Shown here: one piece after another, positions 28,853-43,917 of the stretch
How the letters are laid out: each line of letters opens with the position of its first letter
Position numbering within the stretch: position 1 is the stretch's first letter
DNA from: Escherichia coli
GTDB taxonomy: Bacteria > Pseudomonadota > Gammaproteobacteria > Enterobacterales > Enterobacteriaceae
Direction: 5' to 3' (one strand)
Assembly: GCF_001677475.2 (NCBI RefSeq)
Contig: NZ_CP015229.1
Length of the DNA: 64,000 nt
The notes under the pieces: model-generated
What the model saw: only the letters and a program-made list of their open reading frames with translations
The model's database searches: none
Told to the model about the DNA's origin: nothing
Made by a program: the position numbers and the translations under genes

Positions 28853-28951
28853 ATATCTGTAATAAGAAATAGCCCTCGCCGCTTCCCTCTACAGGAATGG
28901 CGAAGGGCTGTCGGTTTCGACATGGTTGGCCATCGTATGATGGCCTTTTTT
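28853..28951 (+). ncRNA. sdhX: sucD 3'UTR-derived sRNA region (SdhX/RybD-like) ending in an intrinsic terminator
   Basis: Two hairpins (agccctcgcc...ggcgaagggct at 28871-28909; ggccatc...gatggcc plus T6 at 28928-28951) directly after sucD stop; position matches the known SdhX locus; sequence identity not verified. Confidence 0.5.
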
Positions 28952-30347
28952 ATGCCTTAAACGTTAACCACGGTCGAAATCTGACCGCTGGCTGAATTAA
29001 TCCGGCTTCTTGTTGAGCTTCGATAACCGGACCAATATCTTTATAAGCCGCTGGCGCTTCTTCAAGACGTCGTTCTTCGCGCAATGTGACGCATTGCCAC
29101 GGCAGCGTTGACTCTTCAGTCACGCGTGAGCGCATGGCCTGCCGACGCTGGCTGCGTCCTGCTCCGTGACTGCATGACCACAGCCACTCCGGGTTGCCGC
29201 AACCTACCGCAAGCCACGAATAATCGCCCATTGAACCAGGGATTAATGCCAGATCACCCACTCGTGCCGGTGTTGCGCCTTTGCGATGAATATTCATTTC
29301 ATGCTCGCGAAGGATGATGTTATGTGGCACATCCACCACCAGATGCGAATTGTCCTGATGAAAGAGATCGGCAAAACATACGCGCACCATTTCGGCAATT
29401 GTGACGCGATTTAACCATGCGTAACGCGCCGCCATCCCCATCGCTTGTAGATATTCCTCCGCCAGTCCACCGGTTAGACCATATAACTCGCTTTGTGGAT
29501 GTTTATGCCCGGCAGGCCAGGCGGCACGGGCGCGATCCATCCAGCGTCTTCCGACGTAAAAGCCAACATCTCGCGATCCACTGTGGATCATCACCACAAT
29601 ATCGCCTGTTTTCAGCCCTTGTTGCCAGGCTACATGGCGATCAACCACGCTATCAACGACCTGAAGTTCAATAAAATGATTACCTGAACCCGGCGTACCC
29701 AGACAAGGATCGCGGAGTAATGCGCGGTCCGTTGCCAGCAGGGCGGGTGGGGCATAACGCGAATGACTGTTATGCTCGTTAAGCCCAATGCAGCGGTCAA
29801 TCTCTTGTACCATTCGGGGGATATTCGTGCGTGTCCAGAGACCTGCTGATGGCAAGGTCGACACGCAATCTGCCGGTCCGTCATCAAAAAGCGCGGTGAA
29901 CGCCTGTGCGGATAACGGAACATCGCGCTCATTTTGCAGTAGCACTTGCGTTAACCGCTGAGCGATGACGTCTTTATGCGCTTCGGCTTGCTCAAGTGTT
30001 AATCCGGTCGTCAGCAGCCGCATGCCACAAGAAATATCGGTGCCGATGGCGGCAGGAATGACTAAATCCGGCGTTGAGGCCACCACCGCGCCAACGGGGA
30101 CGCCATTGCCGGGATGAAAATCTGGCGTCGCGCACGTCTGGCGCACATAACCTGGGTGGTCTGGTAGCTTCACTTCTGCAAAATCAAGCAGTTGTGTTAC
30201 TGCTTTTTCTTCCAGCGGCAGTTCGTCCGGCAGCAGTACGCGGGCACTGGCACCTGATGGACGAGATAATGAAACAATATTGTTGGCGCGGGAAAGTTGG
30301 ATCCCTTTGCGCAGAAAGGCTTTATCAAGCCTTGAAAGATGATGCAT
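28950..30347 (-). CDS. RtcB-family RNA ligase paralog (3'-phosphate/5'-OH ligase family)
   Basis: 465-aa ORF with RtcB motifs aligned to E. coli RtcB from memory: PAAIGTDISCGM, GSGNHFIE, IHSGSRDVG, IPGSMG, SCSHGAGR, AYKDI. Confidence 0.85.
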   Translation of the reverse strand: MHHLSRLDKAFLRKGIQLSRANNIVSLSRPSGASARVLLPDELPLEEKAVTQLLDFAEVKLPDHPGYVRQTCATPDFHPGNGVPVGAVVASTPDLVIPAAIGTDISCGMRLLTTGLTLEQAEAHKDVIAQRLTQVLLQNERDVPLSAQAFTALFDDGPADCVSTLPSAGLWTRTNIPRMVQEIDRCIGLNEHNSHSRYAPPALLATDRALLRDPCLGTPGSGNHFIELQVVDSVVDRHVAWQQGLKTGDIVVMIHSGSRDVGFYVGRRWMDRARAAWPAGHKHPQSELYGLTGGLAEEYLQAMGMAARYAWLNRVTIAEMVRVCFADLFHQDNSHLVVDVPHNIILREHEMNIHRKGATPARVGDLALIPGSMGDYSWLAVGCGNPEWLWSCSHGAGRSQRRQAMRSRVTEESTLPWQCVTLREERRLEEAPAAYKDIGPVIEAQQEAGLIQPAVRFRPWLTFKA

Positions 30348-30938
30348 AACGCTGTCCTGAAATATAGACGTTAAACAACCCCCTGTATTGCGAGGGTAAT
30401 TTTGTCTTTCCGGTCAGCAGCCAGCAAAAGGGAAAGAAAACGCGCGTAGTGTATGTGGCGATAGCAAGTTTTACAAGTGGTAAATCTGGCTTATTGTTAA
30501 AGAGAAATTATCTTTAGCGAAGCCTTTTAAGGCCATGACTCATTCAATTTAACCGGACACAGAGATTATATAACATAGGGTATCTAAATTTATCATTGTA
30601 TACTTGTCATACTTCAAGTTGCATGTACTGCATCGATGTTCGCTCAGCCTGGCCACTTACTTATGTAAGCTTCTGGGAATTCATTATTTGTTGCCTTCCT
30701 GCAACTCGAGTTATTTAGAGTATATTTACACATATGAATAATATACTTACAATAATGTTTTTAAAGTATTGCATGCGGATAACTGAGGTGAAATTCCTGT
30801 TTTAGGATTATTGTCACTTTATTTTCCTGGTTGGACATATAGCTGACTGGTTTGTTTATTTGAATTATGATATTCATTAGTGCTACTGTTTTTTTATAAA
30901 ATAATTTTTTGAATTGTTATTTTTTCACGGAAGGCATT

Positions 30939-31844
30939 ATGCGAGGGAAAATACCTAAAACGGAACTGCTGGTGACTTTTGAGGTCGTCGCACGTCATGA
31001 AAGTTATACCAGAGCGGCAGAGGAGTTAGCGTTAACCCAAAGTGCAGTATTCAGACAAGTGAGTGCGCTGGAGGAATTTTTACATACTCCGTTATTTTCA
31101 CACTCTAAAAAACGTATTTTTCTTAATGATGCAGGGAAGTATTACCTGGGGATAGTAAAAGAAACATTAAATAAGCTGGAACGCGATACCAATACCATTA
31201 TGACCTGGCAACCTACAGTTAAGGTTATTGAACTTGCCGTGAATCCTACGTTTAGTACCCACTGGTTAATCCCAAATTTACATGAATTCACAAAGTTACA
31301 TCCCGATATTATTGTTAATATTCACTCTTTAGCTAATAACGGCGATTTTCTTAATCGGGAGTACGATGCTGTCATTATGCGCGAAAATTTTTGCGCGCCC
31401 TGGGCGGAAGTAGAATATCTCTTTGAAGAAGAGATTTTGCCGGTATGCAGCGGCAGTTTGCTTGCAATGTCCGATCAAAAACTGTCAGTGGCAGAACTGC
31501 TTACAGAGTTACCACTTCTGCATCAAAGTACCCGTATTACTGGCTGGGAAGAGTGGTTTGCTTTATCTGGCGTTAGCAGTCCGCTGGTCAATAACGGACC
31601 ACGTTTCGATTTGCTTTCAATGCTGATTGCCGCCGTGCGCTCTAATCTCGGCGTGGCGCTGTTACCACGGTTCGCTATTCAACATGATTTGGATAGTGGC
31701 GATATGGTGATTCCCTGTGATGTGCCTATTCGTACCGGTAATCGTTTTATTATGACGTGGCAGGAAGAGAAGTCTGACTCGCCGCACTTGCAGCAATTTC
31801 GTGAATGGTTGCTGGCGAAATCGGTCGTACCGCAGGAGATGTAA
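30939..31844 (+). CDS. LysR-family transcriptional regulator
   Basis: N-terminal HTH (LVTFEVVARHESYTRAAEELALTQSAVFRQVSALE), ~300 aa, GGAAGG Shine-Dalgarno before ATG at 30939; divergent from the RtcB paralog. Confidence 0.85.
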   Translation: MRGKIPKTELLVTFEVVARHESYTRAAEELALTQSAVFRQVSALEEFLHTPLFSHSKKRIFLNDAGKYYLGIVKETLNKLERDTNTIMTWQPTVKVIELAVNPTFSTHWLIPNLHEFTKLHPDIIVNIHSLANNGDFLNREYDAVIMRENFCAPWAEVEYLFEEEILPVCSGSLLAMSDQKLSVAELLTELPLLHQSTRITGWEEWFALSGVSSPLVNNGPRFDLLSMLIAAVRSNLGVALLPRFAIQHDLDSGDMVIPCDVPIRTGNRFIMTWQEEKSDSPHLQQFREWLLAKSVVPQEM

Positions 31845-31877: not shown

Positions 31878-32480
31878 TTACCAGTCGATACCCGGCTGGG
31901 CCTGAATGCCGCTATCAAAAGCATGTTTGACGGGGCGGATTTCGCTGACCGTATCCGCCATTTTTAATATCTGACTGTGGCAACCGCGTCCGGTGACAAT
32001 GACACTTTGTTGTGCCGGGCGGTTTTGCAGAGAAGCGATCACTTCTTCGGTATCCAGATAATGGTAAGCCAGCATATAGGTGAGCTCATCAAGCACCACT
32101 AAGTCGTAACGCTTGTCAGCCAGCATCCGTTTGCTTTCCGACCAGACCTCTTTCGCCGCGTCGATATCCGCTTGTCGGTTCTGTGTTTCCCAGGTAAAAC
32201 CGGTTCCCATAATATGAAACTCAACCCCCAGCGGCTGGAGAAGGTTGTATTCGCCGTTGTCCCATTGCCCCTTGATGTACTGCGCAACCCCCACCGTTTT
32301 GCCATGACCCACCGCGCGCGTCACAGTACCAAACGCGGCAGTGGATTTCCCTTTGCCGTTGCCGGTGAAAACAATCAAGATCCCTTTTTTCTCTATCGCC
32401 GCCGCGACGCGCGTATCGACCTGTTCCTTCAATTTCTGCTGGCGCTGCACATGCCGTTCTGTTGAAATTCGCGCTTCCAT
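31878..32480 (-). CDS. ATP:cob(I)alamin adenosyltransferase, BtuR/CobA-type paralog
   Basis: 200-aa ORF closely resembling E. coli BtuR (VFTGNGKGKSTAAFG P-loop, VVLDELTYM, RPVKHAFD); last gene of the island operon. Confidence 0.85.
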   Translation of the reverse strand: MEARISTERHVQRQQKLKEQVDTRVAAAIEKKGILIVFTGNGKGKSTAAFGTVTRAVGHGKTVGVAQYIKGQWDNGEYNLLQPLGVEFHIMGTGFTWETQNRQADIDAAKEVWSESKRMLADKRYDLVVLDELTYMLAYHYLDTEEVIASLQNRPAQQSVIVTGRGCHSQILKMADTVSEIRPVKHAFDSGIQAQPGIDW

Positions 32481-32489
32481 TCATTTTCC

Positions 32490-34142
32490 TTAATGTCCCG
32501 CAGGGCAACTGGCGCAGCGGTGTTGCTGCTCAAACTGACTAAAGAAATTATTGCCTTTATCATCTACCAGGATGAATGCGGGCAGATTTTCCACTTCCAT
32601 CATCCACACCGCTTCCATACCCAGCTCCGGGTATTCAAGGCAACGCAGACTTTTGACATATTCTTGCGCCAGTAACGCAGCTGCACCGCCAATACTTCCC
32701 AGATTGAAGCCGCCATGTTTGTGACAGGCATCGGTGACCTGCTGGCTGCGGTTACCTTTCGATAACATCACCAGACTGCCGCCAGCCGCCTGGAAGGTAT
32801 CGACATAACCGTCCATTCGACCGCCCGTGGTTGGACCCAGTGAACCGCAGGCCATGTTCTCCGGTGTTTTCGCCGGGCCAGCGTAATAGACAATATGATG
32901 CTTCAGGTAATCCGGCATCGGTTCGGCGCTATCCAGCCGCGCTTTTATTTTGGCGTGGGCGATATCGCGTGCCACTACGATGGGACCACTTAACGACACG
33001 CGGGTGCCTACCGGTAATCTGGCGAGATCCTGCATCACGTCACGCAACGGACGGTTTAGATCCAGATGTACATGTTGCGCGTGATTTTCTTCCCGCAGTG
33101 AGGCTGGAATATATTGCCCCGGATTGTGTTCGAGTTTTTCCAGCCAGATACCGTGCTTGTTAATTTTTGCTTTGATATTGCGATCGGCAGAACAGGAGAG
33201 CGCCATAGCTATCGGACAAGAGCCACCGTGACGCGGCAGACGAATGACGCGAATATCATGAGCGAAATATTTACCCCCAAATTGCGCACCAATACCAAAT
33301 TGCTGACTGGCCTCGAGCAACACTTTTTCCAGCTCAATATCACGGAATGCTTGTCCCTGCTCGTTTCCGCTGGTGGGCAAATTGTCGTAATATTTCGTTG
33401 AGGCCAGCTTGGCAACTTTTAAGGTTTGATCGGCTGAAAGCCCTCCGACGACAAAGGCGATGTGGTAAGGCGGGCAGGCAGCGGTGCCCAGCGATTTCAT
33501 TTTTTCGATTAAAAATGCGGTCAGTTTTTCTGGTTGCAATAAGGATTTGGTTTCCTGATAAAGTGCGGCTTTATTGGCGGAGCCGCCCCCTTTATTAACA
33601 CAGAGAAAATGGTACTCATTACCAGCGACAGCGTTGATATCAATCTGCGCCGGGAGATTGGTTTGCGTATTGACTTCGGTATACATATCCAGCGGCGCAT
33701 TTTGTGAAAAGCGCAGATTATTTTCCTGGAAAGTGGTGTAAATGCCTTTGCTTAAGGCTTCAGCGTCGTTACCTCCGGTCCATATCTGTTGCCCTTTACT
33801 GGCAACAATAGTTGCGGTGCCGGTATCCTGACAGTTGGGTAATACCCCTTTTGCTGAGACTTCAGCATTACGTAATAACTGCAACGCAACGTATTTATCA
33901 TTACTACTGGCCTGCGGATCGTTAAGAATGCTGGCGACCTGTTGCAAATGAGCGGAACGTAAGAAAAAAGAAGCTTCATAAAATGCCTGCCGGGCAAGCA
34001 GCGTTAATGCTTCAGGTGCGATTTTTATCACTTCTTCGCCGTCTAATTCCGTTACTGTAATATGCTGATCGCTAATTAATGTATATTCTGTACCGTCTTT
34101 ATTTTGTAGAAATGGTTCTTGCCAGATAAATGGTTTGGACAT
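32490..34142 (-). CDS. fumD: class I fumarate hydratase homolog, probable mesaconase/fumarase (FumD-like)
   Basis: 550-aa ORF highly similar to FumA/FumB along its length ([39 protein letters not shown]); clustered with glutamate mutase and methylaspartase. Confidence 0.85.
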
Positions 34143-34249: not shown

Positions 34250-35530
34250 TCAGGGCAGAGCAACGTTCGATTCATTGGGTTTTAATGCTTTACCCCGACA
34301 GCCCTCGCCGAAATGTTCGCCTTCCCACCGACTCACCATCGCAGCGCCCATTGCGTTGCTCATGACGTTTGTCGCGGAACGCCCCATATCAAGGAACGGA
34401 TCAACGCCCATCAGCAAGATCAGCCCCGCTTCCGGAATATTGAACTGGTTGAGCGTGGCGGCGATAACCACCATTGAAGCGCGTGGTACGCCAGCCATTC
34501 CTTTCGAGGTCAACATCAGGATCAACAGCATGGTGATTTGCTCACCGATGGATAAATGGATATTGCAGGCCTGGGCGATGAAAACTGTGGCGAAGGAGCA
34601 GTAGGCCATTGATCCAACGAGATTAAATGAGTAGCCAATGGGTAAGACAAAGCTGGCAATTTTGGGGGAAACGCCAAATTGCTCCAGTTTTTCAAGCGTT
34701 CCTGGAAAAGCCGCTTCAGAACTGGATGTGGTAAATGCCAGCAGGGCGGGTTCCGAAAGGGCGCGGGTCAGGCGTCTGATGCAGGGGCCGACATAAACGA
34801 TGGCCAGACCGATAAGCAGCACCCAAAGTAACAACATGGTGAAATAAAATTCACCCATAAAGATCCCGGCGCTCACCATAACTGCCAGTCCTCGTTCAGC
34901 AATCAATGCTGAAATAGCGGCGAATACGGTCAGGGGAGCGAAGAGCATGACGTAGCCAGTGAGCTTTAACATGGCATGTGCCAGCGAATCTAAGGCGTGA
35001 ACGATGGCGCTGCCTTTCTCGCCAATCGCCGTCAGGCTACAGCCGAGGAAAATTGAGAACACCACGATTTGCAAAATTTCATTGTGCGCCATGGCATCGA
35101 CAATGCTGGTGGGGAAAGCATGCGAAATAAATACTTTTAGCGTGAAGGGTTCTGACGCGACCACTCCAGTGGTTTCGGCACCGTGTGCAACAAAATTAAT
35201 TCCTGTACCTGGCATGAAGAAATTTACTGTTATTAAGCCTAAGGCAATTGACAGCAATGAGGCGCAAATAAATAAAAAGAGTGTTTTAGAAAAAATACGA
35301 CCAAGGGCTTTGGCATCGCCCATTTTAGCAATACCTACCACCAGGGTAGAGACCACTAACGGAGCGATAATCATTTTTATCAGTCGTAAGAAAATCGTCG
35401 TGAATATCGATATTTCTTGCGCATAGAGTTTTGCGGTTTCCGGTGAAGCAGTGTTATTGAGCACTACGCCGATAACCATTCCAAGTACCAGCGCCAAAAG
35501 AATCATCGTGGTTAAACTTATTTTCTTCAT
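34250..35530 (-). CDS. dicarboxylate/amino acid:cation symporter (DAACS family; GltP/DctA-like)
   Basis: Polytopic ORF with DAACS-type motifs; Met at 35530 preceded by GGAGG; substrate not inferable. Confidence 0.8.
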   Translation of the reverse strand: MKKISLTTMILLALVLGMVIGVVLNNTASPETAKLYAQEISIFTTIFLRLIKMIIAPLVVSTLVVGIAKMGDAKALGRIFSKTLFLFICASLLSIALGLITVNFFMPGTGINFVAHGAETTGVVASEPFTLKVFISHAFPTSIVDAMAHNEILQIVVFSIFLGCSLTAIGEKGSAIVHALDSLAHAMLKLTGYVMLFAPLTVFAAISALIAERGLAVMVSAGIFMGEFYFTMLLLWVLLIGLAIVYVGPCIRRLTRALSEPALLAFTTSSSEAAFPGTLEKLEQFGVSPKIASFVLPIGYSFNLVGSMAYCSFATVFIAQACNIHLSIGEQITMLLILMLTSKGMAGVPRASMVVIAATLNQFNIPEAGLILLMGVDPFLDMGRSATNVMSNAMGAAMVSRWEGEHFGEGCRGKALKPNESNVALP

Positions 35531-35575
35531 TTTTTCCTCCATCAGGTGCACGGCGATAAATCAGAATCAGGAGAA

Positions 35576-35607
35576 GTAGATGCCTGAATAGAGATTCAGG
35601 CATCTAC
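35576..35607 (-). other. intercistronic perfect hairpin (14-bp stem, 4-nt loop)
   Basis: gtagatgcctgaat-agag-attcaggcatctac between the small coupled gene and the transporter gene. Confidence 0.5.
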
Positions 35608-35690
35608 CTGCTATTACAACCTTACAAATAGCTGAAGTGTTGAACTGCAATAAGTGACGGGATGTCAGTTGGCTAAAAGTGTTCGGATTT

Positions 35691-36008
35691 TTACAAATCG
35701 AAACTCATATTTAATAAAGGTGCATGTTGCTGTGCACCATAGACATCATTGTCACCTACATTCCCGGAGATAATATCTCGTGGCATGACGATTTTTACTG
35801 CGTTAGAAGGATCAAACCAGACAATACGATGAATAAAGTCAGGTTCAACATGATATAAGCGCGCAATCAGTTCTGGGGTTAATTGCCCTGATGATTTAAC
35901 TCGCTCATAGTTTTCTTTGGTTTTAAATAAAATATCTAAAACCAGTTCGTAAGGTCCGGCATTTTTCGAACGAATGACTTGCGCCAGTGAGACAATTGAC
36001 TGTTTCAT
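35691..36008 (-). CDS. uncharacterized small protein, partner of the upstream 456-aa protein (possibly DUF4387-like; unverified)
   Basis: 105-aa ORF overlapping the upstream gene by 4 bp; no motif I can assign. Confidence 0.55.
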   Translation of the reverse strand: MKQSIVSLAQVIRSKNAGPYELVLDILFKTKENYERVKSSGQLTPELIARLYHVEPDFIHRIVWFDPSNAVKIVMPRDIISGNVGDNDVYGAQQHAPLLNMSFDL

Positions 36009-37375
36009 GCCTGAACTCCTTCTGGCGTCACCTGTTCAATATGGAAATCAAAACGCAGAGCGTCGTTGGCTTCAATCAGGTGATATATGGAAAATTCGTA
36101 TACTGGCCCGCCCTGGATATCAGAAGGGGAGAACGGGAACGCCAGGTTGCCTGCGGTAGCGATGCGGTTTTCATAGCCGTAGTGCAGCATAGTAGAGCGC
36201 ACCAGCGAGCAAACGCTGTTGGCAATTTCCTGGGTCGATGCAACTACATCTAGCACAATCCCCAGCTCATGCCCGGCAGTTTGCATCGGTTCATGGTCGC
36301 CCATCACCCCGTTTTTGCCGTACAGGTGGAAATTGATGCGAATGCTGTCATCGTCGAGCGACAGGTTACGCGAAACGCTGGTTTTGACTTCATCGATGAT
36401 TTTATCGATCCCGGCGATCATGATCGGGTCGCGCGTTCCTGCGATGGTCAGACAGCGGAAGCCCACTCGTCGCGCACCTTCCAGTTTCAGGGCATACGGC
36501 GTTCCTTCATGCTTAGAACCGCTGACGTACACTTCGCCGTCATTGACCGCTTTAAATGTGCAGCCTTTCAGGTTCAACACGCCGCCAGGTCCAGGCAGGA
36601 AGTAGGGATCGGATTTCTCATACAGTGTGTGTGCAGCCGCTGACGTTTCGGTAAATTTACGCTTCGGATTAAATGTCTTCAGCGTAAAGCCGTTGTCATC
36701 AATGATGCCCATCGCACAGTCAGAGCCTGAGCCGGGCGTTGCGGCGATTGCCGCGCATTCAAGGATTTTCCCACAATGCAGCGCCAGACCTTCATCAAAG
36801 CCTTGCATGATCGGTAGCGCAGCAAAGCAGGCCGGGTCGTAAGCGCGCCCGCCCAGCACCACTTGCGCGCCTTCTTTCAGCGCCTGCTGGAAGGGTTCGA
36901 TGCCCATTTGCGCGACGATATACGTACTTTCGTCAATCGCGTCGTGGGTTAACGGCGGGACAAAATCCAGCGCCGTGATTTTGCCGTTATCCAGCGCCTG
37001 GTGGACGATGGCTTTGTCAACGTCTGCCGGGATCAACGCCATCGAGAACGAGAGGTGCTCTTCCCGGGCAATCTCATGAATTATTTCTCGGCACCACTCC
37101 AGGTGTGGTGCGGCACCAGAACCGCCAGCCGTTCCGATCACCACCGGTATATTATTTTGCACGCCTGCGGTGATCATATAGCGCAGATCGCGCTTGACCC
37201 CTGCGCGATCGGTAAACGGTTTGCCTGCCCCGAGGTAGTGGGGGCCTGGATCGGAAGAGCCTGCATCAACGGCGATCAGATCGGGCGATTCTGCCATCGC
37301 TTTGCGGAAGCTCTCTTCCGGGAATCCATACCCGAGGATTGCCGTTGGCGATAAGACTTTAAAAGAACGAGCCAT
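36005..37375 (-). CDS. uncharacterized protein, large member of a coupled pair (possibly DUF1446/AtuA-like or an AcnX-type hydratase; unverified)
   Basis: 456-aa ORF starting 3 bp after methylaspartase; several conserved-looking Cys/Gly-rich stretches (GTAGGSGAAPH, HCGKILECAAIAATPGSGSDC); family assignment needs an HMM search. Confidence 0.55.
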   Translation of the reverse strand: MARSFKVLSPTAILGYGFPEESFRKAMAESPDLIAVDAGSSDPGPHYLGAGKPFTDRAGVKRDLRYMITAGVQNNIPVVIGTAGGSGAAPHLEWCREIIHEIAREEHLSFSMALIPADVDKAIVHQALDNGKITALDFVPPLTHDAIDESTYIVAQMGIEPFQQALKEGAQVVLGGRAYDPACFAALPIMQGFDEGLALHCGKILECAAIAATPGSGSDCAMGIIDDNGFTLKTFNPKRKFTETSAAAHTLYEKSDPYFLPGPGGVLNLKGCTFKAVNDGEVYVSGSKHEGTPYALKLEGARRVGFRCLTIAGTRDPIMIAGIDKIIDEVKTSVSRNLSLDDDSIRINFHLYGKNGVMGDHEPMQTAGHELGIVLDVVASTQEIANSVCSLVRSTMLHYGYENRIATAGNLAFPFSPSDIQGGPVYEFSIYHLIEANDALRFDFHIEQVTPEGVQA

Positions 37376-37378
37376 TTG

Positions 37379-38620
37379 TTAATCCTTAGCCTGCAACAGC
37401 GCGATAGTACGATTCATTTCGTTGAAGACAATATCGAGGCCTTCGTCAAAGCCCATCCCAGGTTTTACCAGCATACGCATAGGGCGAGCGGCAAGGGCGA
37501 CGTGGACACAGGTGCGTGCACTGACATCAGTTTCATTGCAGGTGCCGCCCTGGTACGCTTCCATGTTGTGGCTGTTGCAATAAAGAACTGCATCGACGAT
37601 GTTGTGAATACTGCCCAGATCCGGGGTTTTGATTTGCACCATGTGGCAACTGGCGGCATCAGTGAAATCAACAATATCCTGGTAGGTGTTACACCATTCA
37701 TCGGCCACAATTTTCACGCCGGAACCGAGGCGCATCAGCTCTTTGGTAATCGCGGTCAGCAGGCGAATTTGATCGGGCTTGTTACCGGCATCGACCGGCC
37801 CTTCAATGTAGAGCGGCAGGCCTTGCGCTTCTTTTTCCAGGCTGGCGATGTATTGCGCACAGCGAAGCGGATCCATATCGAAGATCAGACCGATAGTGCC
37901 GTATACATCGATGTGCAGGGTTGGGTGGTAGCGTGCGCTGGTGCGCTTGCTCAGAATGCGATCCGACAGCCAGCGGACATATTCGCGCAGTTTTTCACCT
38001 TTAAAGCCCAGCTTCTCTTCGACGTTATTAATCAGCGCATGGGGCAGCACGTCGATGCCTTTAAGGATCATCTTATCGACGGCGATATATCGATCGTCGC
38101 CGCTCTGACCAAATAATGGAATGGATTCCGCCACGCGTGGCAACTGCCATTCATCACAGACCACTTCAGTTTTCAGACGGCCGGTTGCCAGCGCGGCAGC
38201 ATCAAGCAGCGCCTGTGATAATCCGTAGCGCACGGCGGTATGCAGCAAGTTGCCGTCAATACGCAATTTGTCGAAGAAACGGGCATTCGGCAGGAAAGCA
38301 TCCACATCGCGGCCTACCAGTAATGGCTTAATATGGTCGTTGAGGAACGGAATAAAGTGCTCTGCGAGGAACAGTGGATCGCGACCACCTGCCCCGGAAT
38401 ACTGTACGGCAGCACAGTCACCTACAGCGACCGCGCCGTTTTCCAGAATCAACTGTACCGATACGCACTCCCCAGCCTGACGTACGGCGTTAAACCCTTG
38501 TGTTACTGGCTCCCCGGTATAAAAAAAGCCGTCGTGACCCGCTCCGTTTTTTATCGCCTGCTGGTCATCGAAATAGAATGAGGAATAGCCAGCGGTGAAC
38601 AGGGCCTGTTTTATTTTCAT
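37379..38620 (-). CDS. mal: 3-methylaspartate ammonia-lyase (beta-methylaspartase)
   Basis: 413-aa ORF, enolase-superfamily methylaspartase signature (FYFDDQ.AIK.GAGHDGF N-terminus). Confidence 0.9.
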   Translation of the reverse strand: MKIKQALFTAGYSSFYFDDQQAIKNGAGHDGFFYTGEPVTQGFNAVRQAGECVSVQLILENGAVAVGDCAAVQYSGAGGRDPLFLAEHFIPFLNDHIKPLLVGRDVDAFLPNARFFDKLRIDGNLLHTAVRYGLSQALLDAAALATGRLKTEVVCDEWQLPRVAESIPLFGQSGDDRYIAVDKMILKGIDVLPHALINNVEEKLGFKGEKLREYVRWLSDRILSKRTSARYHPTLHIDVYGTIGLIFDMDPLRCAQYIASLEKEAQGLPLYIEGPVDAGNKPDQIRLLTAITKELMRLGSGVKIVADEWCNTYQDIVDFTDAASCHMVQIKTPDLGSIHNIVDAVLYCNSHNMEAYQGGTCNETDVSARTCVHVALAARPMRMLVKPGMGFDEGLDIVFNEMNRTIALLQAKD

Positions 38621-40065
38621 TATGGTCTTCCTATTAATTTACTGTGGGATACAGCATTGATGTCATCTACAACCATCTGGAATGTCGGTTGGCGTCCTTC
38701 AAAGCGTGCGCGTTCCGCAACGTAATCGTGGTGGAGGTCGAGAATATCTTTTGGCAATGGAACGGCTCCGGCTTCCAGTACGCGTATCGCGCCGGTGTTG
38801 TCACGGACCGGAAGAATTTTGCCCGCGTTGCAGGCGGCTGGCGCAAATGGCACATCCAGTACGCCCGCTTCAAATGCCAGCACCGTTCCGCGCGCAATAT
38901 CATCATTACCCAGTTCGAACACTTTATTCAGTACTGCGCGAACCTCGCTCTTAATCAGTTCAATTTCCAGTTCAACCGCAGGGCACGGCGGAAATTTCTG
39001 CTCATTGACCATGTTGAGCATCTGGCGGGAGGCTTTTAGCCCCTGAATGTTGGCAGCGGCAGTCGGGATGCCCCAGGCTTCGTGCGGACTTTTGGTGATG
39101 ACTTTGGTGGCACCAGACATCCCCGCGACGGCTGCGCCCCAGGAGATAATAGCGAACGCTTTCGATTCGTCTTCCGGAAAGCCGCCCATCCACTGGTGAA
39201 ACACGGTACTTAATTCATAGTCGGTATAGCCATAGCTCTGAAAGTAGTCATGTGCAAGTTCACGCAGAGACTGGATCGCCGCAACATCCTGCGTCAGGCT
39301 GCCGACCTGTCCATAACCAACGGTGATAGATTTCACACCCTGTTCCAGTGCCAGCAATCCTTCGATTATCGCGATAGAGTGCGAGATAAACGGCGGGATC
39401 AGCGTACCCGTTAGTGGGCCAAACGGTTCGCGGTTGATGCGGATCCCGTGTTCTTCATACATCCCCATTAAACGGTCGCAGTACTGCCAGTCGCGGATCG
39501 ATTTTTCCAGCGTTACGCGTTTGGCATACGGAATGTTGTAGGAAATGCCGCCGCCTTCATAACTGGTAAAGCCGCTGGACATCGAGATTTCAGCCAGCAG
39601 ACGTGCATCTGGCGTGCCGTGGCGGATCTGTAGCGGTTTTTGCAGGGTTTCGGTGAGGCGACGGCAAGCAGCGACACCATGGTTAACTACCGGTAAACCG
39701 TTCAGTTTAGAGGTTCCGGCTTCGATGGATTTTTTAATCCCTACAGCCGCTTCTTCGTACCGATTCAGACGGGTATATGCATCGATGGTGCTTGGCAGCA
39801 GATCGCACTCTTCTTGTAGTGTTTTCAGTAGTTCGATGTGTTCGTCCATCAGCGCCACACCTGCGCGTGGTTGGCTAAGGGTTTTTCCTTCCTTGTCTGC
39901 TTTCAGCAGCGCAAGAGAGAAGCGTTTATGCTCAGGAATGGTTTGTTGGTATTTAACGCCATCTTCAAAGTTTTCAACATCCTTGCCGGTTTCCCAGGTT
40001 TTCAGTACCTGTTGCCGCTCGGTCATGAATTCGTCATGGGTTAATTTCTTATTTCGAAGTTCCAT
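38620..40065 (-). CDS. glmE: glutamate mutase epsilon (E) subunit
   Basis: 481-aa ORF matching methylaspartate mutase E chain; 1-nt overlaps with mal and near glmL. Confidence 0.88.
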   Translation of the reverse strand: MELRNKKLTHDEFMTERQQVLKTWETGKDVENFEDGVKYQQTIPEHKRFSLALLKADKEGKTLSQPRAGVALMDEHIELLKTLQEECDLLPSTIDAYTRLNRYEEAAVGIKKSIEAGTSKLNGLPVVNHGVAACRRLTETLQKPLQIRHGTPDARLLAEISMSSGFTSYEGGGISYNIPYAKRVTLEKSIRDWQYCDRLMGMYEEHGIRINREPFGPLTGTLIPPFISHSIAIIEGLLALEQGVKSITVGYGQVGSLTQDVAAIQSLRELAHDYFQSYGYTDYELSTVFHQWMGGFPEDESKAFAIISWGAAVAGMSGATKVITKSPHEAWGIPTAAANIQGLKASRQMLNMVNEQKFPPCPAVELEIELIKSEVRAVLNKVFELGNDDIARGTVLAFEAGVLDVPFAPAACNAGKILPVRDNTGAIRVLEAGAVPLPKDILDLHHDYVAERARFEGRQPTFQMVVDDINAVSHSKLIGRP

Positions 40066-40083: not shown

Positions 40084-41472
40084 TTATAGGGTTAAGCATT
40101 GAATACTGGTGCGCGCGGCGGCCAGCGGATCGACTCTGGCGACGTTTGCCAGCAGTGGTAATAGCCCCCGGGAATCGCGGTAATATTCAAATTCGGTCGG
40201 TAAGAGAATGCGTTTACCGTCGTCGTTTAACTCGCGGTATTTCAACCAGTGATGCATATCGAACTGACTGGCACGCGAGAGCCATCCGCCGGAACCCACG
40301 ACTTTACGCACGGTTGTCAGGTCACGTCCCATCTGTAAATCGACATTGCCGACGCAGGTGCAGACCTCTTTTTTGGTGCCCGCATGTCTTTCGGTGGCAT
40401 AACCCACACACAGTCCGGCCAGGACGGTATCGAAATATTTCTCTTCTGCATTTGCGGGTAAGTAGTCGGGATGAGCGACTAAATGACGGAGATAATGATA
40501 AAAAGCGTCCAGCTGTGCGGGTTGCTGAGCAAAATTCACATTGACTAACTCTTTCGCACTTTCACCAACCACCACTGCCGAGACGCGCATTCCCAGATCG
40601 CCTTCCACCGTCCGTTTTACGAAGGGTTCCGGTACGCCGTGTAAAACGGTGTCGGGCGAGAGCGTGTTGGCACAGGCGGAATAGACATCGGTGGTTGCGC
40701 CGCCCATGTCGATCAGCATGAACTCTTTCCAGCTGTGATCGACGTTACTGATTGCCTTAACCAGTTCAAAGACCGTCCATGGTGTCGGCCTTGGTTCTTC
40801 GCCTGTTTTATCAACAATGACATCCAGCCCTTTCCCTTTAACGATGCGTTTAAGGAATATGTCGCAAATAGCCTGGCGTGCGGCTAAAGGGTTCGGATGG
40901 TCAAGATCGGGCAGAACGTTGTCGACGATGGTCAGGTCTTTATGCCCGAGGAGCTCCTGCACCTCGTCCTGAATATCCCGGTTTCCGGCATAAATAATGG
41001 CGCAGTCGAGTTGGGATTCTGCCAGCACACGGGCGTTATTCAGTCCGTAACTTTCTTCTCCGCCGTCGGTGCCGCCGGTGAACAAGAGAATATCGGGCTG
41101 CGTTTCTTCCAGTGCCTGGATATCACGGCGGTTCAGCTTGTAGGAGTAATATTGCGCAATTTTAGCCCCCGCAGAGTGAGCGGTTACTTTCGCGGTTTCC
41201 AGGGTGATAGAAGGCACCAATCCCATTGCGGCAACCGCCAGCCCACCTTTGGCAGAGGAGGAATACTTTAATGCAACCTCACCACTGTTTAACAGGGGGA
41301 GGGCATCATCTACGTTTAACACCTGGTCCAGGCTGGAGAAAAACCCCTTCGCCAGATGATGGGTGGTGGTTGGGGTCAGAACGTGGTTAACCAACGTTAA
41401 CGCGTCCCCCTCCCGGGTGAAGAGGGCTGCTTTGGTCCACGTCGAACCAATATCGACAGAGACGATTTGCAT
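40084..41472 (-). CDS. glmL: glutamate mutase accessory protein (GlmL/MutL)
   Basis: 462-aa ORF between S and E subunit genes as in clostridial glmS-glmL-glmE; overlaps glmS stop. Confidence 0.8.
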   Translation of the reverse strand: MQIVSVDIGSTWTKAALFTREGDALTLVNHVLTPTTTHHLAKGFFSSLDQVLNVDDALPLLNSGEVALKYSSSAKGGLAVAAMGLVPSITLETAKVTAHSAGAKIAQYYSYKLNRRDIQALEETQPDILLFTGGTDGGEESYGLNNARVLAESQLDCAIIYAGNRDIQDEVQELLGHKDLTIVDNVLPDLDHPNPLAARQAICDIFLKRIVKGKGLDVIVDKTGEEPRPTPWTVFELVKAISNVDHSWKEFMLIDMGGATTDVYSACANTLSPDTVLHGVPEPFVKRTVEGDLGMRVSAVVVGESAKELVNVNFAQQPAQLDAFYHYLRHLVAHPDYLPANAEEKYFDTVLAGLCVGYATERHAGTKKEVCTCVGNVDLQMGRDLTTVRKVVGSGGWLSRASQFDMHHWLKYRELNDDGKRILLPTEFEYYRDSRGLLPLLANVARVDPLAAARTSIQCLTL

Positions 41473-41921
41473 CAGATTGCCTCTTCAAGAATGCGAGTAT
41501 CAACGTCATGACGTTGGTTGATATCGTGGGCCATCAGCTGACAAACATCTTCTAAGTCATGACTTGGGGAAAAGACGCGATCAAATCCCATCTCTTTGAA
41601 CTTGGTTTCCACGTCAGCGAAGTCATGTTTTCCGACCACCAGGTTACCGCCCACATAGAGCAGGATGTTACCCAGCCCACGCTCGATGCAGCGTTCGCGC
41701 ATGCCCAGACAATCGATATCGCCATGCCCATAGATAGAAGAGACGACAATCGCGTCAGCGCCAGTTTCAATAGCAGCATCAATATATTCGTCCTGGCTGA
41801 CCATTACGCCCAGATTAATGACTCTGAAGTCGTGGTTGCTAAAAACGCGGTCCAGAACTTTATTGCCTACTGCATGGCAGTCCGCGCCAATAACGCCAAT
41901 CACAAGTGTTGCTTTCTTCAT
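41472..41921 (-). CDS. glmS: glutamate mutase sigma (S) subunit, B12-binding
   Basis: Cobalamin-binding motif ([10 protein letters not shown]); start at 41921 ([19 protein letters not shown]) preferred over track start 41984. Confidence 0.88.
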
Positions 41922-41984
41922 GGGTAATCCTTTGTAAGACAGAGAGTAAAATAAGTTACACACGTCGTATTTATGGCCGCTCAT

Positions 41985-42468
41985 AACGGCACAGGTTTAA
42001 TATCACAGGAGTGTCTTTATCTGACCGTAATGTTGCAATTGATCTATTTTCAAAATGTCTTTCGGGAAATGATTGTTTAAAGTGTGTTTTCAAATTCTCA
42101 TTTTAATTCAGTGTGTTATGTCAACTAATGTCATGAATGTTAAATTTTTAAAATTAACTTGATTTGATGTATTGAGATAATTGTGATCAACTTCTAATTT
42201 GCATTTTTGTGACGTGGCTTTAGCCATGAGTAAATGCATTTCATAAAAGTTAAGTCGAATTTCACTGCAATTCATCTCTGCTTAATGTAAAAATAATGTT
42301 GAAAATAACAAATAATTAATGATTCATGCGAATTATGACCTTTGTTAGCTCTTTTGATTTTTCGTAAAAAAGAAAAGCACATGAAGGTGCTACCAGTACG
42401 AGAAACGTTAATCAAAAGTTTTATTACGTCTGGCAATAACGCAGGCCATTTTTCGCGACAGGAGGGAT
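41985..42468 (-). promoter_or_regulatory. AT-rich leader/promoter region of the glmS-led operon
   Basis: ~480-bp very AT-rich non-coding spacer upstream of glmS; individual sites not resolved. Confidence 0.5.
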
Positions 42469-42891
42469 TTAATCAGTATAATCCTCATACAATAGGTCAG
42501 GATTTACAGAACCGTTAACGGGGTTTTGGTGTTGAAATTTAGAAATGGTGGAGTCAATCAATGAAGACAGTATCGAAAAAATGACTGTGTCAGAACTAAT
42601 TTCAATTAATCCTTCTCGTTGTTGATCAAAAAAGATATTTATCTTGATTTCATTTGTACTACGGCAATCAATATGTAGTAATTTTTGATCGCTGAGATTT
42701 TCTGTTTCATAAATGTTTTTGGCGATAGTCGGATGTATTGATGCCAGACATCTGCTCAGATAAGCCATATCCTTTAAGGAACTCCCCGCTGAGTAGAGGA
42801 TGTCAGAGAATTTTTGTGTGTCAACTGTTGTCTCTGAAGCGTATGTTGCATTGACAGGAAGAGTATTGAAAGAGATCTGAGATGGTATCAT
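42469..42891 (-). CDS. hypothetical protein (no recognisable family)
   Basis: 140-aa ORF in low-GC DNA, co-oriented with and 81 bp downstream of the 314-aa ORF. Confidence 0.5.
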   Translation of the reverse strand: MIPSQISFNTLPVNATYASETTVDTQKFSDILYSAGSSLKDMAYLSRCLASIHPTIAKNIYETENLSDQKLLHIDCRSTNEIKINIFFDQQREGLIEISSDTVIFSILSSLIDSTISKFQHQNPVNGSVNPDLLYEDYTD

Positions 42892-42972: not shown

Positions 42973-43917
42973 TTAAAGTATTTTATTGGCTTCGGTTAAC
43001 TGATCTATAACCAGTGCCAGATTGGTAAACATTTTGAAAAAGCGATACTGGCTCGGAATATCTCTTTCAAAGACGAAACATTCAAGGTCATTGTTTGAAA
43101 AATAAAGGACTAGTGTTGCTGATTCGTCAGGGAAAACATGGAAATGTATCTGGTTACCAGAAGGAGGATAGTCCAGAAGAAGGGTATCTTTGCCCGTCAC
43201 ATACCTGTTGTTGTCGTGGACGCTACGCTCACACTTCATCAGAGGTGTCAGGATACTCATGTATTCATCTGATGTTAATTTATTAAAATCATCATTCATT
43301 TTAAAGAAACGATAAAGTAACAGTACATCCTCTTGCGTAACCGGTTCGTTTGTTTTTAGAGGGAAATAAGCGGGAACCAGAAGATGAGGTTCTAATCTAT
43401 TTTGTTGAGCGCTATAACTGAATTTGAACATAAATTCTGGATCGCTCATCAATTGAGCGACATAATTATGCCTGGCTTCAAAAATTTTAATTTTTATCAG
43501 GTTGAATAAGTCTGTTTCGTCATCCTGTATTAAAAGACATTGGCCATAGCAGCCTGGATTTTTTTCATTATAAGCAGAAACGGTTATTCTGTCAGAGGTG
43601 TCAACGTTATATTCAAAAGCCAGATAGTGACCTTCTTCATCGCGATTTGTTTCCAGGTTATTTAAATTCATCACATGAAGTGTTTGCAATGCTGATTCAA
43701 TGAGTTGTTGACTCTCTGAGGTAAATGTTTTGCGCTGCGTTGTATAAAGTGTATCAATTCCAACGACTATCCGATGTGGATCAAGGATGGCGGCAATCAT
43801 CTTTATTACCTGCACAGTCACGGGTGATGTCATTGATTCTTCATCTGTTTTTAGAGGATCATTAGATGGCCAACCTGAGAAGCGATTGACAGCCGAACCG
43901 ATATTATCTGGACTCAT
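42973..43917 (-). CDS. hypothetical protein (no recognisable family)
   Basis: 314-aa ORF, low GC (~37-38% by eye versus ~51% backbone), no motif I can assign. Confidence 0.55.
   Translation of the reverse strand: MSPDNIGSAVNRFSGWPSNDPLKTDEESMTSPVTVQVIKMIAAILDPHRIVVGIDTLYTTQRKTFTSESQQLIESALQTLHVMNLNNLETNRDEEGHYLAFEYNVDTSDRITVSAYNEKNPGCYGQCLLIQDDETDLFNLIKIKIFEARHNYVAQLMSDPEFMFKFSYSAQQNRLEPHLLVPAYFPLKTNEPVTQEDVLLLYRFFKMNDDFNKLTSDEYMSILTPLMKCERSVHDNNRYVTGKDTLLLDYPPSGNQIHFHVFPDESATLVLYFSNNDLECFVFERDIPSQYRFFKMFTNLALVIDQLTEANKIL

Follow-up and report, generated by a model that had tools for sequence, protein, structure and literature searches.

A methylaspartate-pathway island of Escherichia coli carries a gene pair very probably encoding the CoA- and ACP-independent citramalate lyase CmlAB

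The classical citramalate and citrate lyases (CitD-CitE-CitF; EC 4.1.3.22 and 4.1.3.6) of Clostridium tetanomorphum and its relatives comprise three subunits, work through an acetyl thioester on the prosthetic group of an ACP, and need CitC, CitX, and CitG for activation. Like CmlAB, the enzyme considered here, they convert (S)-citramalate overall into pyruvate and acetate and act at the end of the methylaspartate pathway (Kronen & Berg, 2015; PMC4682846). Another route, through succinyl-CoA:citramalate CoA-transferase and (S)-citramalyl-CoA lyase, also converts citramalate to pyruvate and a C2 unit (PMC4682846, Fig 2); unlike CmlAB, it is CoA-dependent, is divided between two separate enzymes, and gives acetyl-CoA as its product, and most enterobacteria lack its genes (PMC4682846). 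The same study characterized FumD of E. coli O157:H7 as a mesaconase of high activity, recorded a DUF1446 gene after mal, and found no cleavage of citramalate by citrate lyase, isocitrate lyase, or methylisocitrate lyase. No citramalate lyase activity was detected in extracts of E. coli ATCC 700728, no condition for expression of the cluster was found in E. coli, and the authors wrote that "the fate of (S)-citramalate ... is still unclear" (PMC4682846).

The closest described system is the CmlAB enzyme of Klebsiella/Raoultella, represented in the PDB by entries 9ERQ ("Citramalate lyase - AMPPNP - citramalate complex", released 22 Oct 2025) and 9EVF ("Citramalate lyase - ADP - pyruvate complex", released 8 Oct 2025), in which the depositors named the chains "Citramalate lyase, subunit A (cmlA)" and "subunit B (cmlB)". 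A preprint presents CmlAB as the citramalate-cleaving enzyme, reporting growth of E. coli that depends on cmlAB and mesaconate, as well as label flow from mesaconate via cmlAB into acetyl-CoA; with heterologous CmlAB, growth was obtained only following laboratory evolution, and the CmlAB used was a gift from the Berg laboratory (bioRxiv 10.64898/2026.01.16.699985). A literature search on CmlAB returned only the 2015 study of Kronen and Berg and this one preprint of 2026, and did not find a primary biochemical paper. The name citramalate lyase rests on the PDB depositors and the one preprint, and was given to the Klebsiella/Raoultella enzyme.

Here, we analyzed a 64,000-nt stretch of an E. coli genome (contig NZ_CP015229.1; hereafter, the window), in which two adjacent genes very probably represent cmlA and cmlB, encoding the two subunits of a single enzyme, the CoA- and ACP-independent citramalate lyase CmlAB (Table 1). 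In a PDB sequence search, the large protein matched chain A of 9ERQ and 9EVF (E 4.3e-291) with 419/456 identical residues (91.9%) and no gaps, and the small protein matched chain B (E 5.2e-57) with 88/104 identical residues (84.6%); beyond these two entries, the search gave no significant match for either chain. Because both chains are present in the same two PDB entries, CmlA and CmlB are expected to form one complex. Differences from the Klebsiella/Raoultella proteins are limited to species-level substitutions, 37 in CmlA and 16 in CmlB. Among 32 sequences of at least 61% identity, 157 columns are invariant, and none of the 37 differences between the window protein and 9erq_A falls within them; likewise, no CmlB substitution lies at a conserved column. 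The 9erq_A sequence is 100% identical to a gene product of Klebsiella michiganensis DSM 25444, whose locus has the order glmS-glmL-glmE-mal-cmlA-cmlB-symporter-fumD-cobO, as in the window. These comparisons suggest, with high confidence, that citramalate lyase function can be transferred to the window genes. An earlier reading made from the sequence alone (the sequence-only reading) could not assign either protein to a characterized enzyme; that statement is now out of date, as chains 92% and 85% identical have been crystallized as citramalate lyase, and the pair is orthologous to this named enzyme.

Table 1. Coordinates of the gene pair, its junctions, and neighboring genes within the window
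Feature	Position	Strand	Source
cmlA, predicted citramalate lyase large subunit, 456 aa, ATG start, AtuA/DUF1446 family	36005..37375	-	
cmlB, predicted citramalate lyase small subunit, 105 aa, ATG start, DUF4387	35691..36008	-	
cmlA/cmlB start/stop overlap ATGA	36005..36008	-	read from sequence
mal-cmlA junction	37376..37387	-	read from sequence
mal, methylaspartate ammonia-lyase, 413 aa	37379..38620	-	PGAP annotation, colinear E. coli locus L001 (98.3% identical DNA)
glmE, glutamate (methylaspartate) mutase subunit E	38620..40065	-	
glmL/mutL, glutamate mutase reactivating chaperone	40084..41472	-	
glmS, B12-binding subunit S of glutamate mutase, 149 aa from annotated start	41472..41921	-	
GltP/DctA-family dicarboxylate/amino acid:cation symporter, 426 aa, probable glutamate uptake	34250..35530	-	
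fumD, class I fumarase/mesaconase, makes (S)-citramalate	32490..34142	-	NCBIfam NF011921, 1279 bits
cobO/cobA, cob(I)yrinic acid a,c-diamide adenosyltransferase; adenosylcobalamin supply for mutase	31878..32480	-	
LysR-family regulator beside cobO, downstream end of gene row	30909..31844	+	longest ORF; PGAP: 301 aa

The close packing of the pair described in the sequence-only reading, with the large gene 3 nt past the methylaspartase stop and overlapping the small gene by 4 bp, agrees with the sequence on every detail. The mal stop codon TAA (37381-37379) is followed by the spacer CAA and the cmlA ATG (37375-37373), with AAGGA at 37387-37383 on the 5' side of this ATG. The cmlB ATG (36008-36006) shares bases with the cmlA stop codon TGA (36007-36005) and follows a sequence, AAGGAG at 36021-36016, that reads as a Shine-Dalgarno element; translational coupling at the ATGA overlap would supply CmlA and CmlB in matched amounts. 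Further upstream, glmS/glmL (41472) and glmE/mal (38620) each overlap by 1 nt, and the gap from glmL to glmE is 18 nt. The proposed glmS-glmL-glmE-mal-large-small unit is therefore borne out in its tight junctions, but not in its end at the small gene: the row goes on after a 160-nt spacer with the symporter gene, fumD, and cobO, all on the same strand as cmlB. Neither gene is a chance ORF, given the Pfam matches reported below, the thousands of homologs of their products, and the annotation of the same two genes by PGAP in E. coli genomes.

Positions 28955-49377 of the window are colinear with a locus of E. coli strain 7/2 at 98.3% identity, where the NCBI names are glmS, glmL, glmE, mal, AtuA family protein, DUF4387, symporter, class I fumarate hydratase, and cobO, with the LysR regulator annotated on the opposite strand. 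The symporter of the island was named GltP by Kronen and Berg (PMC4682846, Fig 5). Two orphan ORFs upstream of glmS set the E. coli island apart from the Klebsiella/Raoultella cmlAB locus, and in the window the island abuts sucD without mngRAB. The two ORFs (42973-43917, minus strand, 314 aa; 42469-42891, minus strand, 140 aa) lie between cydA and glmS, are annotated in E. coli genomes as "hypothetical protein", match nothing significantly in Pfam or NCBIfam, and among the fetched loci occur in those of E. coli only. At its other end, the island finishes with an RtcB-family gene (28950-30347, minus strand) directly abutting sucD, as it also does in E. coli ST2747; in strain 7/2, mngR-mngA-mngB lie beyond the RtcB gene, and colinearity with the window stops at 28955.

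Two noncoding regions of the island are also of note. The spacer between cmlB and the symporter gene contains a perfect 14-bp inverted repeat (GTAGATGCCTGAAT / ATTCAGGCATCTAC) with a 4-nt loop at 35576-35607, followed on its 3' side by a U-rich, interrupted tail; the surrounding 71 nt (35560-35630) have a predicted RNA fold of -25.2 kcal/mol (z -3.3). This repeat may act as a partial terminator, an mRNA stabilizer, or a palindrome bound by a protein, dividing the gene row into two units of expression. Upstream of glmS, approximately 550 nt (41922-42468) are noncoding and, by eye, AT-rich, and this region is likely the promoter and regulatory region of the operon.

Conservation of gene neighborhood was surveyed across the loci of 80 species, from many phyla, that contain close homologs (at least 57% identity). 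In all 77 species-representative loci with enough flanking sequence, cmlB (DUF4387) directly follows cmlA; mal is present in 67/72 loci and stands immediately upstream of cmlA in 61 of the 72. The pair occurs in Proteobacteria, Riflebacteria, Aminicenantes, Spirochaetes, Firmicutes, and others. Three contigs inspected independently showed the same gene order, and two of these also encode a class I fumarase close by. Within E. coli, cmlAB, glmE-mal, and fumD were each found in 1121 of 5426 complete genomes (at least 80% of the query present; counts from three separate searches whose genome lists were not intersected), and these equal counts fit an island gained and lost as a unit. Co-occurrence with glmE and mal, named beforehand as a check on a role in this pathway, is thus strongly positive. 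The CmlAB subfamily is nonetheless not strictly tied to the pathway, since five of the 72 loci contain the pair without mal: three from Shewanella (L064:9992-11664, L078, and L080), one from Accumulibacter (L033), and one from Desulfospira (L065). For these stand-alone CmlAB-like pairs, identity is 57-68%; no glutamate mutase or methylaspartase gene lies within 10 kb of them at any of the five loci, and their neighbors are unrelated (RND efflux, malQ, an HrpA-like helicase, and a protease).

A conserved protein that contains a Walker A motif (GxxGxGKST) and is approximately 315 aa long is encoded beside the pair in 47 of the fetched loci, all of them nonenterobacterial, mostly directly after cmlB (e.g., L003:10677-11618, L002:10712-11665, and L004:10698-11654). 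The copies at two of these loci share 61% identity, and neither Pfam nor NCBIfam gives the protein a significant family match. Either the pathway or CmlAB itself may use it as an accessory NTPase. The P-loop protein is missing from enterobacterial clusters, the window included; the 314-aa E. coli orphan ORF was considered as its counterpart, and the two are unrelated, as BLASTP finds nothing between them (E > 2).

At the level of protein families, the large gene product contains a partial match to Pfam PF07287 (AtuA; E 1.8e-18, 67 bits, residues 63-392) and the small one a match to PF14330 (DUF4387; E 2.9e-39), exactly the DUF1446/AtuA and DUF4387 families at which the sequence-only reading had guessed; no NCBIfam model matches either protein. 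PGAP names the two products "acyclic terpene utilization AtuA family protein" and "DUF4387 domain-containing protein". This name and the Pfam match could be taken to indicate that the pair represents the AtuA protein of acyclic terpene (citronellol/geraniol) catabolism, with no relation to glutamate fermentation. However, the match is partial and holds at the family level only; the annotated neighbors in the colinear E. coli locus include no terpene-catabolism gene (geranyl-CoA carboxylase, acyl-CoA dehydrogenase); mal accompanies the pair at nearly all of the close-homolog loci (67/72); and a 92%-identical protein has been crystallized with citramalate and pyruvate. An atu-type cluster (geranyl-CoA carboxylase, citronellyl-CoA dehydrogenase, hydratase) is not present at the locus, where the neighbors are glm genes, mal, fumD, cobO, the symporter gene, and the LysR gene. 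We consider the chance of a terpene role negligible. AtuA of the Pseudomonas atu cluster, the founder of PF07287, belongs to the same Pfam family as CmlA, but is found in another context and presumably acts on another substrate; its reaction is not known to have been established.

Fused single polypeptides, in which an AtuA part 37-40% identical to CmlA is joined to a C-terminal DUF4387 part, exist elsewhere in the family, which suggests that the two parts work together. These fused proteins retain the CmlA motifs DxGSxDxGP, GxAGGxG, GGRAYDP, HxGKIxECxA, and AAHTLYEK, whereas the CmlA 212-220 loop (ATPGSGSDC) is not conserved in them.

The pair might alternatively act on another intermediate, as a second mesaconate or citramalate hydratase resembling AcnX or as a methylaspartate-converting enzyme. 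The sizes of the large and small subunits fit this pattern, and several homologs carry a matching name: the close CmlA homologs P0002, P0060, and P0071 are called "3-methylaspartate ammonia-lyase" in NCBI records, without containing MAAL domains, a misnaming of CmlA homologs already remarked on in 2015 (PMC4682846). Against it, Pfam finds no AcnX or MAAL domain in CmlA or CmlB, and the true Mal, with MAAL_N and MAAL_C domains, is the product of the upstream gene. Additionally, FumD is already a highly active mesaconase (PMC4682846), and the crystals contain a substrate and a product that fit a lyase rather than a hydratase. Taken together, a role on another intermediate is very improbable, if somewhat less so than one in terpene catabolism. 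The suggestion of an AcnX-type hydratase in the sequence-only reading did not hold up, as Pfam scans of both proteins gave only AtuA and DUF4387, and it has no NCBIfam or PDB support; its further suggestion of mesaconate processing names a role that belongs to the neighboring FumD (PMC4682846). A classical CitDEF lyase (CitF alpha, CitE beta, CitD ACP gamma) likewise finds no support in Pfam, NCBIfam, or the PDB. In contrast with CitDEF, to which it has no homology, CmlAB consists of two unrelated subunits, with no ACP detected and an adenine nucleotide bound; the two lyases are non-homologous isofunctional enzymes.

The preferred assignment to citramalate lyase agrees with the proposal, made from the sequence alone, that the pair is the best candidate for a missing step of the pathway, with citramalate processing given as one example; this matches both the PDB names for citramalate lyase A and B and the account given in bioRxiv 10.64898/2026.01.16.699985. 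On the basis of identity, context, and co-occurrence, the pair would supply the citramalate-cleaving step missing in Kronen and Berg (2015). In the proposed pathway, glutamate would be taken up by the GltP-like symporter and converted to (2S,3S)-3-methylaspartate by the adenosylcobalamin-dependent glutamate mutase GlmS/GlmE, assisted by GlmL and CobO. Mal would then deaminate (2S,3S)-3-methylaspartate to mesaconate, FumD would hydrate mesaconate to (S)-citramalate, and CmlAB would split citramalate between C2 and C3 into pyruvate and acetate. We infer both the activity of the E. coli CmlAB proteins and the flow of the pathway.

By analogy with the AMPPNP-citramalate and ADP-pyruvate complexes, CmlAB would bind an adenine nucleotide beside its substrate or product. 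The nucleotide ligands of 9ERQ and 9EVF are not accounted for by a simple lyase reaction. A tentative alternative to a reversible lyase that binds the nucleotide as a cofactor or effector is that CmlAB is an ATP-consuming lyase, in which the C4 carboxylate of citramalate is phosphorylated to an acyl phosphate and cleavage yields pyruvate and acetyl phosphate, or the products of its hydrolysis. The PDB titles are consistent with this, pairing intact citramalate, apparently trapped, with non-hydrolyzable AMPPNP and pyruvate with ADP, as are the invariant glycine-rich loops of CmlA (D37-x-G-S-x-D-P-G-P, G81-x-x-G-G-x-G, and P214-G-S-G), all three of which are of low confidence and poorly ordered in the AF2 model; on chemical grounds, activation of the carboxylate would also avoid expelling an acetate carbanion. 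However, ATP goes unmentioned in the preprint, where CmlAB is handled as an ordinary reversible lyase (citramalate = pyruvate + acetate) whose thermodynamics are sensitive to acetate (bioRxiv 10.64898/2026.01.16.699985), and stoichiometric ATP hydrolysis would make the fermentation pathway unprofitable. ATP consumption by CmlAB is thus possible, though we would not favor it.

More broadly, it is conceivable, though again doubtful, that the nucleotide is a true reactant or catalytic cofactor and that the AtuA/DUF4387 family comprises unrecognized nucleotide-dependent C-C lyases, which expel acetate or acetyl phosphate from 3-hydroxy-3-alkyl carboxylates. One candidate step of the Pseudomonas terpene pathway also releases acetate from a 3-hydroxy-3-alkyl acid, and this lyase chemistry may extend to AtuA proteins more widely, that of Pseudomonas included. 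If such a class exists, it would account for what AtuA does in Pseudomonas terpene catabolism, for the hundreds of family members, fused or split, in other contexts, and for the conserved P-loop protein after cmlB outside Enterobacteriaceae; much of this may already be contained in the depositors' paper. Were acetyl phosphate the product, glutamate breakdown through the E. coli island would yield one additional substrate-level phosphorylation.

As of June 2026, PGAP, Pfam, and NCBIfam lag behind this assignment, with the proteins labeled AtuA family protein or DUF4387, or wrongly called "3-methylaspartate ammonia-lyase". Synthetic CoA-independent routes already use CmlAB. For E. coli itself, the presence of cmlAB would close a gap that has stood since 2015, namely the way in which enterobacteria, E. 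coli O157:H7 among them, complete the methylaspartate pathway when no classical citramalate lyase is available, and it bears on the use of gut glutamate by about a fifth of E. coli strains.
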